The position numbers were made by a program, and so were the translations under genes. Positions 1 to 5,193 of a stretch of DNA of 5,193 nt are shown here, one piece after another; within the stretch, counting starts at the first letter, position 1, and every line of letters starts with the position of its first letter. The stretch covers positions 1-5,193 of IMG/VR virus record IMGVR_UViG_2897358383_000001, one strand, 5' to 3'. The notes under the pieces are model-generated. The model was not told the DNA's origin. It saw only the letters and a program-made list of their open reading frames with translations, and made no database searches. Source of the DNA: a virus (lineage: Duplodnaviria > Heunggongvirae > Uroviricota > Caudoviricetes).

Positions 1-1
1 C

Positions 2-328
2 CCAACGTTAAAATTACCTGATTTACGCGGTGAGTTTATCCGTGGTTGGGATGATGGGCGAGGTGTGGATGCGGGAAGGGTCATCTTAAGCATACAGGGG
101 TGGTTAACAGGAAGTCATTATCATAATATTCGGTCATGGGACGCGTGGGATAACACGGTATTGGTGCCAAATGACAGAGGGGGGGATAGCCTGTTGTCGA
201 CAGATAACGCCGTCCAAGAAGGAGCGATTAATGGTAAATTTACCAGTCAATACAGAACGGAGTTATCTGGGGGGAATGAAACCCGCCCACGTAACATTGC
301 CTTCAATTATATTGTGAGAGCAGCATAA
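2..328 (+). CDS. Tail-fibre protein, C-terminal variable (receptor-binding) cassette A; 5' end lies upstream of the window
   Basis: Frame is open from position 2 to TAA at 326-328 (the GTG at 65 in the ORF track is internal). Translation PTLKLPDLRGEFIRGWDDGRGVDAGR...ETRPRNIAFNYIVRAA carries the Mu S / P1 S-type motif and the same C-terminal 16-mer as the - strand cassettes. Its stop overlaps the next start (TAATG). Confidence 0.8.
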   Translation, partial: PTLKLPDLRGEFIRGWDDGRGVDAGRVILSIQGWLTGSHYHNIRSWDAWDNTVLVPNDRGGDSLLSTDNAVQEGAINGKFTSQYRTELSGGNETRPRNIAFNYIVRAA

Positions 329-938
329 TGGATAATGCGATATTAAATAGCGAACTTATAGCCATACAGGCAGGAAACATTATCGTTTATAACTATGATG
401 GTGGTAATCGGGAATATATTTCTGCATCAACTGAATATCTTGCTGTTGGCGTTGGTATTCCGGCACATTCTTGTTTGGATGCTCCAGGCTCACATAAAGC
501 AGGTTATGCGATTCTCCGTTCAGAGGATTTAAGTTCATGGGAGTATGTGCCAGATCATCGTGGCGAAACTGTCTATAGCATTGACACAGGGAATCCCGAA
601 GAAATCACGGTGTTGGGTGACTATCCGGAAAATACAACCACTATCGCCCGCTAACACCATACGACAAATGGGATGGAGAGAAATGGGTGGTTGATACTGA
701 GGCTCAACATAGTGGCAGCTGTAGAGGCAGCAGAAACAAAACGTCAGTCATTGATTGATACTGCGATGGATTCCATTAGTCTGATTCAGTTGAAATTACG
801 GGCTGGACGGAAGTTGACGCAGGCAGAAACCACCAGCTTAACTCCGTGCTAGATTATATAGACGAGCTGAACGCGATGGATTTAACCACGGCACCAGATC
901 TCAACTGGCCTGAAAAACAACTTTCTACAGCCAGTTGA
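328..938 (+). pseudogene. Tail-fibre assembly chaperone (Tfa/U-like), reading frame interrupted at least three times
   Basis: ATG at 328 overlaps the cassette A stop. Frame 1 (328-654) gives MDNAILNSELIAIQAGN...ENTTTIAR*. The protein then continues in frame 3 (657-~710, PYDKWDGEKWVVDTEAQH), frame 1 (~709-852, VAAVEAAETKRQSLIDTAMDSISLIQLKLRAGRKLTQAETTSL) and frame 3 (849-938, LDYIDELNAMDLTTAPDLNWPEKQLSTAS*). The C-terminal TAPD(I/L)xWP motif is typical of phage tail-fibre assembly proteins. Breaks coincide with short homopolymers. Confidence 0.55.
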
Positions 939-948
939 TATAATTAAT

Positions 949-989
949 CCGCCCTCACAATATAATTAAATGCAATATTACGAGGGCGG
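949..989. other. Imperfect hairpin (CCGCCCTC..AATAT / ATATT..GAGGGCGG) between the convergent chaperone gene and cassette B; possible bidirectional terminator
   Basis: 8-bp GC-rich stem 949-956/982-989 with an inner 5-bp AT stem 959-963/975-979 and an 11-nt loop. It lies inside the sequence encoding the cassette B C-terminus (RPRNIAFNYIVRA) and is followed by only a short T-run (GTTTCT). Confidence 0.25.
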
Positions 990-1243
990 GTTTCTAAGCC
1001 AGCAGTACCTAAATTAGCTACGGACTGTTTATATGTTTTAAAGTTCCATAATTAGGGGCTGGCAATCCTGCATCGCTTGTGTTCCCCCATCTGATAACTC
1101 CCGTATTACCACTAGTAGCCCATGCCTCGTCAAAGTAGAAATTAATTGAGCTGTCAGTTGCTACGGTTGATTTTGACGGTAATCCGTGAGCATGATCTCC
1201 GTTGCATATCCTTGCTCGCTTAAATAGAGCGACCTGGATCAAT

Positions 1244-1447
1244 CCCGCGCCCGTCATCCCAGCCACGAATGAACTCACCACGTAAATCAGGCAATTTATT
1301 GTCGGGTTAAGCCTTTGCCAGATTTGGGTACTTTTCAGAAGAAAATGCTGCACCATTGCATTTCAGCCACCCCGTTGGAGGTGTGGCTGAGGGCCACGGA
1401 ACAGGCACACCAACAGGCAGTGCAGAGCCTTCCCCAAACCAACGTTT
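1244..1447. repeat. Direct repeat copy 1 (5' module of cassette B including crossover site)
   Basis: Aligns with 1731-1934. About 98% identical over the site-proximal ~140 bp (1310-1447 vs 1796-1934: three substitutions plus a 1-nt C-run difference), about 75% over the distal ~65 bp. Confidence 0.85.
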
Positions 1448-1454
1448 TTATGCC
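1430..1454. other. Candidate invertase crossover site (hix/gix/cix-like), copy at head of cassette B
   Basis: TTCCCCAAACC-AA-CGTTTTTATGCC. The core AAACC-AA-CGTTT resembles the AAACC-NN-GGTTT core of Hin/Gin/Cin sites; the left half is 11 nt rather than 12. Confidence 0.4.
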
Positions 1455-1924
1455 GCCCTTACGATGTAATTAAATGCGATATTTCGTGGACGGGTTTCAC
1501 TCCCGCCAGTATTACCGATACTCCCTCGTGAATGAAGTGTCGGTGATGGGATCAGACTCCCTCCTGTATTTGTGGCATCAAGTCCCCATCCTTGTGTGTA
1601 TGTTTTTTTGAAAATTGTCGCCAGCTCCCATTCATCTTTTGTGTCGTAACCATCATTGGCTACAACAATATGTCGATGCTTTTCCAGCATTCCTGTCTGA
1701 ATGCTCAATAAAGCACGTCCCGCATCCACCCCGCGCCCATCATCCCAGCCGCGAATAAATTCTCCCCGTAAATCCGGTAATTTATTGGTGGGATAAGCCT
1801 TTGCCAGATTTGGGTACTTTTCAGAAGAAAATGCTGCACCATTGCATTTCAGCCACCCCGTTGGAGGTGTGGCTGAGGGCCACGGAACAGGTACGCCAAC
1901 AGGCAATGCAGAGCCTTCCCCCAA
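1448..1924 (-). CDS. Tail-fibre variable cassette C (silent orientation, promoterless; expressed only when fused to the constant part by inversion)
   Basis: Intact 158-codon frame ...LGEGSALPVGVPVPWPSATPPTGWLKCNGAAFSSEKYPNLAKAYPTNKLPDLRGEFIRGWDDGRGVDAGRALLSIQ...ETRPRNIAFNYIVRAA*. The apparent start is a TTG immediately preceded by an in-frame TAA (1934-1936) and sits inside the crossover site, so there is no independent start. Confidence 0.75.
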   Translation of the reverse strand: MGEGSALPVGVPVPWPSATPPTGWLKCNGAAFSSEKYPNLAKAYPTNKLPDLRGEFIRGWDDGRGVDAGRALLSIQTGMLEKHRHIVVANDGYDTKDEWELATIFKKTYTQGWGLDATNTGGSLIPSPTLHSRGSIGNTGGSETRPRNIAFNYIVRAA

Positions 1925-1934
1925 ACCAACGTTT
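1731..1934. repeat. Direct repeat copy 2 (5' module of cassette C including crossover site)
   Basis: Partner of 1244-1447 in the same orientation. The diverged inverted counterpart of the distal part is at window positions 1-70 in cassette A. Confidence 0.85.
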
Positions 1935-1941
1935 TAGTCTT
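1916..1941. other. Candidate invertase crossover site (hix/gix/cix-like), outer site next to the invertase gene
   Basis: TTCCCCCAAACC-AA-CGTTTTAGTCTT, 26 bp. The left half matches the recalled gix left half TTCCTGTAAACC at 9 of 12 positions. It lies at the 5' boundary of cassette C, 55 bp upstream of the invertase ATG. Confidence 0.5.
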
Positions 1942-1995
1942 AATCCCTACCTATACCAACGATGTATTTTTAACTAAACAAAGAGGTTGTTTTTC

Positions 1996-2568
1996 ATGCA
2001 AATTGGCTACATTCGTGTGTCAACAAATGACCAAAACACAGATTTACAAAGAAATGCACTGAACTGCGCAGGATGTGAACTGATTTTTGAAGATAAAATA
2101 AGCGGAACAAAGTCAGCCAGACCAGGCTTGAAAAAGCTGCTCAGAACGTTATCAGAAGGAGATACGCTGGTTGTCTGGAAGCTGGATAGGCTTGGCAGAA
2201 GTATGAAACACCTTATCACGCTTATAGAGGAGTTGCGGGAAAAAGGTGTTAATTTCCGTAGTCTGACAGACAGTATTGACACATCAACACCCATGGGGCG
2301 TTTCTTTTTTCACGTCATGGGGGCTTTAGCAGAAATGGAACGTGAATTAATTGTTGAGAGAACACTGGCCGGACTGGCAGCTGCACGCGAACAGGGACGC
2401 ATTGGCGGACGTCGCCCGAAGTTGACAAAAGAACAACATGAGCAAATAGCGAGGTTGATCGAAAATGGCTACAGCAGGAAACAGTTGGCAATTATTTACG
2501 ATATCGGTGTATCGACGATTTATCGTTATCATCCTGTAGAGAAGCGCCAAACTCAATCTGAGCTGTAA
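1996..2568 (+). CDS. Serine DNA invertase, Gin/Cin/Pin/Hin/Min family
   Basis: 190 aa from ATG 1996 (the track start at 1987 is an upstream TTG), with AAGAGG 9 nt upstream. MQIGYIRVSTNDQNTDLQRNAL... contains the catalytic-serine motif, the conserved VVWKLDRLGRSMKHL and GRFFFHVMGALAEMERELI blocks, and a C-terminal HTH (GYSRKQLAIIYDIGVSTIYRY). Confidence 0.95.
   Translation: MQIGYIRVSTNDQNTDLQRNALNCAGCELIFEDKISGTKSARPGLKKLLRTLSEGDTLVVWKLDRLGRSMKHLITLIEELREKGVNFRSLTDSIDTSTPMGRFFFHVMGALAEMERELIVERTLAGLAAAREQGRIGGRRPKLTKEQHEQIARLIENGYSRKQLAIIYDIGVSTIYRYHPVEKRQTQSEL
2017..2080. promoter_or_regulatory. Candidate recombinational enhancer (Fis-binding sites) inside the 5' end of the invertase gene
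   Basis: Position by analogy with hin/gin/cin enhancers. Near-palindrome GTCAACAAATGAC at 2019-2031; GCGCAGGATGTGAAC at 2066-2080 fits the degenerate Fis pattern G-N2-Y-R-N2-W-N2-Y-R-N2-C; centres are about 48 bp apart. Confidence 0.3.
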
Positions 2569-2688
2569 TTCTAATGCCGCGTCGGTGTAATTTATCTTGA
2601 TAGAATAGGTACATTTATCGCGCGGCACATCAATTCGATGTATCTAGCGCCTGCTGACCGCTAATGAAAACTGTCCTCGAAATGTTGT

Positions 2689-2707
2689 CCCTAGCCCGAG
2701 ACTAGGG
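2689..2707. other. Perfect 6-bp palindromic hairpin CCCTAG-N7-CTAGGG in the invertase-downstream intergenic region
   Basis: Stem 2689-2694/2702-2707, 7-nt loop, no T-tract after it. Could be a protein-binding palindrome or a weak terminator. Confidence 0.25.
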
Positions 2708-3003
2708 TATCACCTCTGGAAAGCATACGCAGAACCTTTTTTAACCCAGGGTGCCCAGCCTTTTTGCTGCTCGCCTTATTCGCAAAAATTAGCTCACATC
2801 CTGCGCTTTCAAGTGCTTTTCACTGCATAGCTGTGTTTTGTTCATTTGTCTATATGCGTACATAGCCTATTAGCATATTTTCTGCCCACTATCGTTATTT
2901 ATTGCAAGCTACAGGTTTTAATTAACAAAACCAGTGTGTGTGGAAATCACAAAGTGCATACCGTTCTCAGATGTTGTTCAACTTACTGTTGTATAGGTAA
3001 AAA

Positions 3004-3267
3004 ATGACATTTTATGTACATATCGTGATGTTATCCCTTCTTGGTGGGGTGTATTCGTATTTGAGTGGGCTATGTGAAAACCGTTACGAGTCTTCATGCA
3101 AGAAATTGCTGGCCGAATGTATTTCCGCCGTACTTGCTGGCTTTATTGGCATGTATCTCGCGGAATATAAGGATATGAATGAAAGCCTTCAGAGCTGCAT
3201 GGTTCTTATTTTCAGCGCCAATAGCAGGCTTATTATTGAAGGTTCCAAAAGTCGGTTGAATAGGTAA
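3004..3267 (+). CDS. Small membrane protein, holin-like paralogue of the following gene
   Basis: 87 aa, AGG 6 nt upstream of ATG. Two clear hydrophobic helices (FYVHIVMLSLLGGVYSYLSGL; LLAECISAVLAGFIGMYLA) and a charged C-terminus. Aligns with the 3342-3671 product in the pattern LLxxxGGxxxxL..R..S..LLxxxxExxxAVxAGxxxxYL...ASN. Confidence 0.45.
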   Translation: MTFYVHIVMLSLLGGVYSYLSGLCENRYESSCKKLLAECISAVLAGFIGMYLAEYKDMNESLQSCMVLIFSANSRLIIEGSKSRLNR

Positions 3268-3315
3268 GTCTCTTATGCAACATAACCGGTTGAGAAGTTA
3301 CTTTGCATACCATTA

Positions 3316-3335
3316 CCTCCTGACAACGTAGGAGG
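3316..3335 (+). promoter_or_regulatory. Hairpin occluding the Shine-Dalgarno sequence of the 3342 gene
   Basis: CCTCCT (3316-3321) pairs with AGGAGG (3330-3335) across an 8-nt loop; the paired GGAGG is the only ribosome-binding site, 6 nt before GTG 3342. Confidence 0.35.
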
Positions 3336-3341
3336 GAACTT

Positions 3342-3671
3342 GTGCTTGACACACAGGAATTAGCTCCAGTTGCTATTGCGCTCCTGCTTTCAGTAATTGG
3401 TGGGATAGGCACGTTCCTGATGGATGTCCGAGACGGTCGCCAGTCTGGCAATTTGTTGGGATTGGTTACGGAGATCTTTGTTGCAGTGACAGCTGGCGCG
3501 GTGGCGTACCTATTGGGGCAACACGAGGGCTGGGAGTTATCCATTACGTACTTAATGGTAACGATAGCCAGCAATAACGGTCATGAGGTGATTTCAGGGA
3601 TGAAACGAGTGAATATCGATAGCATTCTGAATGTTCTTACAAGTTTGGTGAAAAAGGGAGGCGGGAAATGA
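3342..3671 (+). CDS. Putative phage holin (small 2-3 TM membrane protein)
   Basis: 109 aa, GTG start with strong GGAGG. TM segments LAPVAIALLLSVIGGIGTFLM and LLGLVTEIFVAVTAGAVAYLLG, a weaker third, and a Lys-rich hydrophilic C-terminus (LVKKGGGK). Stop overlaps the next start (ATGA). Confidence 0.65.
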   Translation: MLDTQELAPVAIALLLSVIGGIGTFLMDVRDGRQSGNLLGLVTEIFVAVTAGAVAYLLGQHEGWELSITYLMVTIASNNGHEVISGMKRVNIDSILNVLTSLVKKGGGK

Positions 3672-4111
3672 TTGGCTGGGGTGTATGCGTTCTTGCGTTA
3701 GCCTTAGCCGATCGCTATTTGCTAAAACGCAAGGACATCACGCATTTAGAACTTGGTGATGTGGAAATTAAACCGGGTTTCATCCGGGTGCCGTTCAAAT
3801 ACCGGTCTAAATTCCCGTTTTTGCGCGGCGCAACGGTCAGATATTGGATCCGCGATGTTCAGAAGCCGACGACAGTGATTGAAGGCGAACAACGTTGTTT
3901 GACGTCGGCTGAACAGGGCGAAAACAGTGAATGGTTGTACATACCCACTGAATATATGGGTAAAGGAGAGCGACTGTGGCATTTCAACGTCATGGTTACG
4001 CATGGCGACTCGTTCATTAACCCGTTGTATCGGATTTTCCCTGTTACTCAGCAAATCCGCAGAAGTTACGTAATAAATCTCGCACAGGATGTGTCAGATG
4101 ACGAAAAATAA
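3668..4111 (+). CDS. Hypothetical protein with N-terminal membrane anchor, translationally coupled to the holin-like gene; possible holin regulator
   Basis: 147 aa, ATG 3668 overlaps the upstream stop, AGGGAGG 6 nt upstream. N-terminus IGWGVCVLALALA is hydrophobic, the rest hydrophilic. The function is inferred only from position after a holin. Confidence 0.6.
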   Translation: MIGWGVCVLALALADRYLLKRKDITHLELGDVEIKPGFIRVPFKYRSKFPFLRGATVRYWIRDVQKPTTVIEGEQRCLTSAEQGENSEWLYIPTEYMGKGERLWHFNVMVTHGDSFINPLYRIFPVTQQIRRSYVINLAQDVSDDEK

Positions 4112-4700
4112 GTATGCAACGGTCGATTTTGACCAGGTTAATGAAAAGGGGCTGAAATCCCTTATCGCGGCGATCAATAAAACCGGTGTTACGGTAATTG
4201 AGGTTGACTCCAGCAACCGCGCAACAACGAAAGATGGCGTTAAAGTTAAAACCGCAAAGCTGGTTCTTAACGACGGACAAATTCTTGCCATACAGGTAAA
4301 CGATACTGGCGATATATCGTCTGTGAGGCTGAATGGAAAAGCTATTCCTAACGCTCAATCGCCGGATATCAAGACGCTTGGTACCGTCATGGGGCAAGCG
4401 GCCCGCAAAAACTCCGCAAAATTCCAGAAATCACTGATCGCCAAAGCGAAACGTGTTGCCAATCCGGTAGACAAGAAACCGGCAGTAAAATCCAACTTTC
4501 AGCGCCTGCAAGAGGCAAAACAGCGGAATGCTCAGGTGGTTGCCGCTTATAAATCAGCGCAGAACTCGGTGTCTTTCAATCAACAGCAGATCACTGATTT
4601 GCGGGCGAAGCTGGATAAGGAGACAGGCCGACTCAATAACGAAAAGGCCCGAAATGGCGAACTCAAACGCCGTCTTAAGCAACTGAAAGCAGGAAATTAA
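4098..4700 (+). CDS. Hypothetical Lys-rich protein with C-terminal coiled-coil-like region
   Basis: ATG 4098 preferred over 4089 (AGGA 8 nt upstream); the start lies 14 nt inside the upstream gene. 200 aa, MTKNKYATVDF...; C-terminal third is rich in K/R/Q/E/A (QRLQEAKQRNAQVVAAYK...LRAKLDKETGRLNNEKARNGELKRRLKQLKAGN). Confidence 0.65.
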   Translation: MTKNKYATVDFDQVNEKGLKSLIAAINKTGVTVIEVDSSNRATTKDGVKVKTAKLVLNDGQILAIQVNDTGDISSVRLNGKAIPNAQSPDIKTLGTVMGQAARKNSAKFQKSLIAKAKRVANPVDKKPAVKSNFQRLQEAKQRNAQVVAAYKSAQNSVSFNQQQITDLRAKLDKETGRLNNEKARNGELKRRLKQLKAGN

Positions 4701-4701
4701 C

Positions 4702-5193
4702 ATGGAACAGTTCAATATCAATAAAGGGGTGACGATCAAGCCTGGGCTTGACGTGCTTCCCCCGCCAGTGACTGATGATGAATATCGCGCATTAATGGCC
4801 GGTGAGGACCGCTATCTGATGACGGAATCCAACACCCTGGAGGAAATCGAGGCTACGTTCTTCTATGACACGCCGATCCACTGGTGTGCTACGGATTTAC
4901 TGGAGGCGATTAGTTCTACTCGTTTGCAGTTACACCGGACCATGCAGGCATTTGTCCGGGCATTGAACCAGAAGCTGAATGGTACCGGAATCTCTGCGGG
5001 GAGTGATAAAACGGGGGATGTGGCCCAGAGCGGCGCGCGCGCGATCGGCGGTGCTGAAATTGGCCGGGCACGGAACGTTAACGGGCTGCCGGTCCTGCCA
5101 GCCATTATTCCGCTCAGTGATGGTCAGACTATCAGCATTCTGTTTCATAGCCCGACAGCGGAAAACCGGATCACCAATAGCGATACGCTGGTT
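4702..5193 (+). CDS. Hypothetical protein, 3'-truncated by the window (at least 164 codons)
   Basis: ATG 4702 is 1 nt after the upstream TAA with AGGAAA 5 nt upstream. Frame is open to the window end (MEQFNINKGVTIKPGLDVLPPPVTDDEYRALMAGEDRY...). It is absent from the ORF track only because no stop falls inside the window. Confidence 0.65.
   Translation, partial: MEQFNINKGVTIKPGLDVLPPPVTDDEYRALMAGEDRYLMTESNTLEEIEATFFYDTPIHWCATDLLEAISSTRLQLHRTMQAFVRALNQKLNGTGISAGSDKTGDVAQSGARAIGGAEIGRARNVNGLPVLPAIIPLSDGQTISILFHSPTAENRITNSDTLV

Follow-up and report, generated by a model that had tools for sequence, protein, structure and literature searches.

The dar locus in the window

The DNA analyzed here, referred to below as the window, is a stretch of 5,193 nucleotides (positions 1 to 5,193 of IMG/VR record IMGVR_UViG_2897358383_000001) that is part of a P1-like phage or phage-plasmid (Punavirus). 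From 2900 to 4200 (1.3 kb) its identity is 99.8% with Escherichia phage vB_EcoM-813R1 and ~92% with P1, and P1-type phages generally are 92-99.8% identical to it in the lydA region. On the + strand the order is tail-fibre segments, invertase, lydC, lydA, lydB, and hdf. The genes referred to below are:

1987-2568, + strand: Cin/Gin-type invertase (open reading frame list, profile matches)
3004-3267, + strand: lydC, an 87-aa holin paralogue (open reading frame list; PF16083, 38.6 bits; LydC is annotated in P1-type phages)
3342-3671, + strand: lydA, a 109-aa holin with a GTG start (open reading frame list; PF16083)
3668-4111, + strand: lydB, the antiholin (open reading frame list; PF16084, E 8e-104)
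4089-4700, + strand: hdf (DarA_N, E 1.5e-21)

An earlier note on this DNA, made from the sequence alone, had described the 109-aa gene as holin-like and the 87-aa gene upstream as its paralogue. Both identifications hold and can be made specific because of the PF16083 and PF16084 matches: the former is the known P1 holin gene lydA, followed by lydB, and the latter is lydC, whose product matches PF16083 as LydA does. LydA scores 30.1 bits against this Pfam family (the gathering cut-off is 28.4, so the match passes), and the protein is 99% identical to E. coli holin clusters. The succession of LydA (PF16083), LydB (PF16084), and hdf (DarA_N) is that of the dar operon; the window thus carries the locus known from P1 as LPdar-lydA-lydB-hdf-darA with lydC upstream. 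Unlike in P1, the invertase is co-oriented with these genes, 435 nt upstream, and the 3′ end of lydC differs. The 435-nt gap between invertase and lydC contains no convincing open reading frame. In P1 the invertase gene cin (L001, 917-1477) is divergent from lydC. In a near-identical phage record, the invertase of the window is split into two CDSs, Hin1 and Hin2.

The lydC stop is a TAA at 3265-3267. The position of the lydA GTG is backed by variants in which it is ATG (L003, L233). The lydA stop and the lydB start overlap as ATGA (3668-3671) and a GGGAGG lies within lydA just 5′ of the lydB ATG, a classic layout for antiholin-to-holin translational coupling.

An inverted repeat at the lydA ribosome-binding site

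The 26 nucleotides that precede the lydA start codon include a perfect inverted repeat, one arm of which is the Shine-Dalgarno (SD) sequence:

3316-3321, + strand: left arm CCTCCT, an anti-SD sequence (from sequence and folding), starting 2 nt past the −10 hexamer of the late promoter described below
3322-3329, + strand: loop GACAACGT, which a G3322-U3329 pair can shrink to 6 nt
3330-3335, + strand: right arm AGGAGG, the lydA SD, with a 6-nt spacer to the GTG at 3342-3344

The exact complementarity of CCTCCT to the AGGAGG that serves the GTG at 3342 had been pointed out in the earlier note, and its coordinates are exact. The stem predicted by RNAfold has 7 bp, that is, the six Watson-Crick pairs plus G3322-U3329, and both the minimum free energy (MFE) and the centroid structures pair the SD with the left arm. 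Folding of 3300-3350, which the note had proposed as a check, yields a stable hairpin of −15.3 kcal/mol (z −3.05; 2/200 shuffles equal or better), and the shorter segment 3310-3345 folds at −10.7 kcal/mol (z −2.14; 5/200 shuffles equal or better). The claim that the SD is sequestered is thus upheld in that a stable predicted stem buries it in RNAs carrying both arms.

How unusual this is depends on what is being counted. Purine-rich SD regions find some pyrimidine partner in about one third of random 80-nt segments (two null tests), and because SDs so often pair with random sequence, what is distinctive is not the ability to pair, but the presence of a perfect complement just 8 nt away. The window contains CCTCCT-N3-12-AGGAGG a single time (expected ~0.003 per window; found in 0/200 dinucleotide shuffles), as do the 47.4 kb of phage P1, in both cases at the lydA SD. 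A second pair in P1, in the reverse order AGGAGG-N6-CCTCCT, is found at 3514-3531 of AF234172 (L239), within the 3′ end of res and just past the mat stop, and has no linked start codon as far as checked.

In longer contexts the signal is diluted. In a 113-nt context the z of the whole RNA is only −0.56, with the hairpin still in the centroid. A 141-nt fold (z −0.94) showed an alternative pairing, of 3262-3267 (AGGUAA, overlapping the lydC stop) with 3313-3318, that we set aside; this portion of lydC is not conserved in P1. A covariance-model search of the whole window against Rfam 15 gave no match at E ≤ 1.

The late promoter LPdar overlaps the hairpin

The GenBank annotation of P1 (AF234172, AJ000741) places a late promoter, LPdar, between lydC and lydA. 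Mapped onto the window, its elements lie immediately upstream of the left arm:

3295-3303, + strand: LPdar −22 box AAGTTACTT (P1 annotation; Lpa- and SspA-dependent)
3308-3313, + strand: LPdar −10 hexamer TACCAT (P1 annotation)
3319-3323, + strand: predicted start of the late lydA mRNA, 6-10 nt past the last base of the −10 hexamer

Window positions 3295-3313 read AAGTTACTT-TGCA-TACCAT, identical to the annotated promoter, and the window and P1 are identical from ~3283 through the start of lydA. Six late promoters are annotated in the first half of P1, and have in common a box resembling AAGTKACTT, a 4-nt spacer, and a −10 hexamer; the five others were examined and are without such a hairpin element.

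The left arm occupies the discriminator and +1 region of LPdar. Given that the −10 hexamer ends at 3313, and that setting the center of the −22 box (3299) at −22 puts +1 at 3321, we infer that late transcription starts at ~3319-3323, within or just past the left arm. No data on mapped P1 start sites turned up in a search whose reach did not include the primary P1 papers.

Just 5′ of the −22 box (window 3283-3294), comparison of L003-L082 reveals a mosaic junction, at which at least five unrelated left contexts abut one invariant block comprising promoter, hairpin, and lydA. Judging by sequence comparison, the late promoter and the holin gene appear to travel as one module. A different boundary is seen in one viral contig (L074, 1-56, and L236; IMGVR_UViG_2597489893_000001, at the contig start), which diverges completely up to the base preceding CCTCCT, so that the left arm is present and the LPdar boxes are absent. 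A rearrangement could account for this, as could the edge of an insertion or misassembly at the end of a contig.

Predicted SD accessibility depends on the RNA 5′ end

If the start of the late mRNA falls within or just past the left arm, then the fold around the SD should depend on where an RNA begins. Partition-function folding of RNAs with successive 5′ ends gave:

5′ end at 3200-3316: stem pair probability 0.84-1.0, SD opening cost 6.6-13.1 kcal/mol
5′ end at 3317: stem probability ~0.5-0.84, SD opening cost 5.4-6.4 kcal/mol
5′ end at 3318-3323: stem probability ≤0.06, SD opening cost ~5 kcal/mol

The hairpin, predicted to form in ~99% of RNAs that begin no later than 3316, is therefore lost (6% at most) once the 5′ end lies at 3318 or beyond. 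Shuffling of the upstream sequence lowered the cost of opening the SD: in the window, 8.6 was observed, compared with 5.7 ± 1.6 among the shuffles, 6/100 of which were as high; for P1 the observed value was 11.8, compared with 6.5 ± 1.8, and 1/100 was as high.

The late leader itself is not devoid of structure. From −22 to +40 it is no more structured than shuffled sequences (z −0.06), and within the predicted late leader a small hairpin of −6.9 kcal/mol at 3328-3348 (CAA.GUA.GAG with CUU.UGC.UUG) touches part of the SD and the GUG. This small hairpin explains the residual SD opening cost in late RNA and, because of it, the predicted late mRNA is not fully open; according to the folding model, late translation of lydA may be damped. 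At one point a conserved late-leader structure (start codon with codons 5-6, SD with codons 9-10) seemed to be present in three lineages. We dropped it because the −22 to +40 z is ordinary (−0.06 in the window, and +0.43 to −2.1 elsewhere) and because the register of the SD pairing shifts among lineages.

Possible transcription from upstream

If the late mRNA lacks the left arm, the hairpin would act only on RNA that enters from upstream. Such transcription is plausible because the terminator scan of the lydC-lydA gap (3268-3341) found no terminator-like site, lydC has been described as having a putative early promoter (with lydA and lydB described as late; PMC9025707), and the invertase in the window is co-oriented. 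It is also plausible because in distant lineages the invertase is mostly on the same strand and directly 5′ of lydA (see below). In P1, cin is divergent, and read-through there would therefore have to come from lydC or from run-on of the tail-fibre operon only. Transcripts that reach the hairpin by read-through are likely to come from lydC. The sole sigma-70-like consensus match in 1900-3800 is at 3209-3236 (TTTTCA-16-TATTAT), in the 3′ part of lydC, and an RNA beginning there would include the complete hairpin.

Published CRISPRi roadblocks bear on where functional expression begins. A roadblock in lydC had no plating phenotype (efficiency of plating 1.1), and those in lydA and lydB lowered the efficiency of plating to 0.12 and 0.023, respectively (PMC10695390). 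Because of this difference, the data fit a model in which functional lydA-lydB expression starts downstream of lydC, at LPdar. In RNA-seq of P1vir in a dksA host at 30 min, lydA mRNA was reported down and lydB mRNA up (PMC8201110). Such a pattern in adjacent genes of one operon hints that parts of the dar mRNA differ in processing or stability.

Comparison across lydA lineages

We compared ~230 loci drawn from phage, plasmid, viral-contig, and metagenome sets, which together comprise 13 distinct start-region sequences. The ~215 P1-type sequences show no variation between the −22 box and the GTG, bar four rare polymorphisms:

C3316 to A (L145): weakens the outer pair
A3315 to C (L046, L206): adds a C-G pair with G3336
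A3337 to T (L063, L224): outside the stem
ATG in place of the GTG start codon (L003, L233)

Because the P1-type block offers only these four polymorphisms among ~230 loci, covariation in the hairpin cannot be tested for, and none is seen. Invariance of the block is in turn weak evidence because lydA itself is 99% conserved across the same set.

The comparison also covered distant lineages, with 58-77% LydA identity, which were found in Salmonella salamae, Cronobacter/Klebsiella, Pantoea, and one metagenomic contig. A search of GTDB species genomes added no further lineage, and the metagenome and viral scans added only the metagenomic one (L098). Both LPdar boxes are kept in these lineages, whereas the 8 nt of the left arm are not. 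The aligned position of the −10 hexamer reads TAACAT, TACCAT, or TAAAAT, and a G-R-CAA-Y motif just downstream is common to all lineages (GACAAC in the window, GGCAAT elsewhere). The left arm, and with it the local hairpin, is thus limited to the P1-type lineage and is absent outside it, where the promoter is kept. The distant lineages examined (L083-L091, L095-L098) have no lydC upstream of lydA; instead, the invertase is on the same strand, directly 5′ of lydA, with the exceptions of phage D6, in which it is divergent, and L091, in which the contig ends too early.

Most of the other lydA lineages keep the promoter without a significant upstream anti-SD sequence, as judged by null tests with shuffled or random upstream sequence. 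A CTTACCYTYY tract just 5′ of the −22 box in the lineages from Salmonella and Cronobacter was considered as a homologous anti-SD sequence, and MFE folds do pair it with the SD. We do not claim it as such because three null tests revealed no excess over shuffled or random upstream sequence. In the Pantoea lineage (L089, 2487-2500), the SD GGAG is paired with a CUCC located between the SD and the GUG (GGAGUAACUCC). This arrangement differs from that of P1 because the small hairpin would persist in the late mRNA.

The metagenomic locus L098 has another arrangement, which is stronger. Here, a 14-bp helix (10 + 4 bp), formed by CCUCCCGCGC.CUUGC and GCAA.GCGCGGGGGG (507-524 and 573-589), joins the SD region of lydA to sequence that closely follows the invertase stop (the gene ends at 503), and the entire late promoter lies inside the 49-nt loop. 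The helix has a z of −3.30, with 1/200 shuffles as good, and its duplex energy of −22.9 kcal/mol was matched by 0/500 random segments. Phage D6 has a weaker promoter-spanning helix (z −1.87). The transcript-selective model set out in the next section is backed by one independent recurrence, that in L098, and not by general conservation.

A possible transcript-selective silencer and its alternatives

We propose that the inverted repeat acts as a transcript-selective translational silencer of lydA, and consider this reading about as apt to be right as wrong. Whatever its origin (lydC, the invertase or tail-fibre genes on the same strand, or a spurious start), RNA entering from upstream would carry both arms, and in such RNA the local hairpin would bury the AGGAGG SD. 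Because the SD would be buried, no lethal holin would be made from upstream RNA early in infection or in the lysogen; we infer both the existence of this read-through RNA and the size of the effect on its translation. Once the late activator Lpa turns on LPdar, RNA polymerase would start at ~3319-3323, and because this puts the 5′ end inside the left arm or immediately beyond it, the late mRNA should be free of most or all of the arm. Its leader of ~20 nt, without the anti-SD sequence, would then be translated.

This proposal departs from the interpretation in the earlier note, which had the holin as a whole waiting for the hairpin to open. That the SD is sequestered and that the gene encodes a holin both stand; the RNA affected and the mode of relief were probably misidentified. 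A general requirement for opening is not supported, given that LPdar is placed so that the late mRNA should drop the left arm. The suggested opening of the hairpin by ribosomes finishing lydC is unlikely too, considering the lack of lydC in distant lineages and the lack of effect of the lydC roadblock. A ribosome covers ~15 nt downstream of its A site, and one terminating on lydC would be out of reach because the stop at 3265-3267 lies 49 nt before the left arm. The idea of a translational guard on a lethal protein survives, with the difference that the target is likely stray RNA and not the timing of the main mRNA.

A version of the original idea deserves consideration in its own right, namely, that the hairpin sits on the functional lydA mRNA as a general attenuator or timer, opened by lydC translation or by a late factor. 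A stable hairpin does cover the SD, holin dosage sets lysis timing, and even the predicted late leader, whose start we place by promoter geometry, retains weak structure over the SD and GUG. However, for the late mRNA to include the whole arm, transcription would have to start 1-3 nt past the −10 hexamer, and the same points that count against lydC ribosomes (the 49-nt distance, the distant lineages, and the roadblock) apply here, so we regard an attenuator as improbable. The structure might otherwise belong to the lydC transcript, as a terminator or stabilising hairpin at its 3′ end, and it is indeed located 49 nt past the lydC stop. Yet the stem is followed by GAACUUGUGCUU rather than by a U-tract, the terminator scan does not call it, and several P1-type contexts have no lydC-type sequence 5′ of the same block, which leaves this explanation with very little probability. 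Equally hard to credit is a role of the palindrome at the DNA level, where it would bind a dimeric regulator or form a roadblock between +1 and +20 of LPdar. The position of a perfect 6-bp inverted repeat right where a regulated promoter starts would suit such a role, but no annotated P1 regulator has this recognition sequence (the C1 operators in the record are different sites), the element is absent at other late promoters, and one of its arms is simply the SD consensus.

The serious alternative, although we judge it unlikely, is that there is no regulatory role: the complement arose by chance, or CCTCCT is kept as part of the LPdar discriminator or initially transcribed sequence, with the pairing incidental. 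In favor of such an explanation are the absence of the hairpin outside the P1 type despite conservation of the promoter, and the lack of covariation. It is also consistent with the z values in longer contexts, which are not significant (−0.56 to −0.94), and with the ease with which SD regions find partners. Moreover, the whole window was scanned for anything notable, so multiple testing applies. What argues against it is the form of the repeat (exact, 6 + 6, with a short loop, and with the low expectation and the absence from shuffles given above) and its placement, at a single site in 47 kb of P1 that coincides exactly with the SD of a lethal gene located right behind an early one. The independent promoter-spanning anti-SD helix of L098 also argues against it, as does the fact that the other five late promoters of P1 that were examined do without the element. 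On balance, the transcript-selective silencer is the reading that we carry forward.

Relation to known systems

Silencing of this type is well documented in phage T4, in which a helix over the start site of genes e (lysozyme), soc, 49, and I-TevI silences long early RNAs, and a late promoter in the region encoding the 5′ strand of the helix gives a late mRNA that is without this strand and is translated (PMC3014915). As with T4 gene e, lydA is a lysis (toxic) gene behind DNA that is probably transcribed earlier, with its SD paired, in this case by prediction, with an upstream strand. There are clear differences. The late promoters of T4 are of the gp55 type, whereas those of P1 use the host sigma-70 polymerase with Lpa, SspA, and the −22 box; gene e encodes an endolysin, whereas lydA encodes a holin; and lydA has a short stem of 7 bp whose 5′ arm contains the predicted transcription start. 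The comparison rests on experiment on the T4 side, and on sequence and folding for lydA. The element is likely a further example of a well-known phage strategy, in a well-known locus.

Other systems offer partial parallels. The sdi stem-loop of lambda S is also an RNA structure at the translation start of a holin gene, and influences holin output in lambda. Unlike lambda S, lydA has no dual-start motif, and its antiholin is encoded by a separate gene, lydB. The sequence rules out a dual start of the lambda S type: the coding region opens with GTG CTT GAC ACA..., the next Met is residue 27, there is an in-frame TGA upstream of the GTG (3321-3323), and no second in-frame start is near the GTG. 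The hairpin also resembles SD-sequestering RNA thermometers and riboswitches in that the SD is within a hairpin, but it is a perfect GC-rich helix, with none of the typical mismatches and no aptamer.

P1 is a classic model phage whose lysis system is unusually complex (LydA, LydB, LydC, LydD, Lyz) and continues to be dissected; in the functional study of the P1 holins from 2022 we found neither a hairpin nor a stem-loop mentioned. If correct, transcript-selective silencing would explain how a lethal holin gene can lie directly behind an early gene or a constitutive invertase without killing of the lysogen. It would also extend the T4 rule (a late promoter inside an inhibitory helix) to a temperate phage-plasmid with a different system of late transcription. 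Because the mechanism itself is textbook, the gain would be a neat detail that can be tested, not a new principle.

A broader claim, which we put forward only tentatively and regard as rather doubtful, is that anti-SD helices straddling the late promoter of the holin gene have arisen repeatedly, and each time independently, in P1-like phage-plasmids. Candidates are the P1-type hairpin, the long-range 14-bp helix of L098, and possibly a 10-bp helix in D6. If this were so, the holin would be insulated from invertase and early-gene read-through in the plasmid-prophage state, and occlusion of the ribosome-binding site by a helix with an embedded promoter would be a general safety design for lethal late genes of temperate phages and not an oddity of T4. 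At a practical level, lydA cloned or engineered with the 6 nt at 3316-3321 should differ in leakiness from lydA without them.
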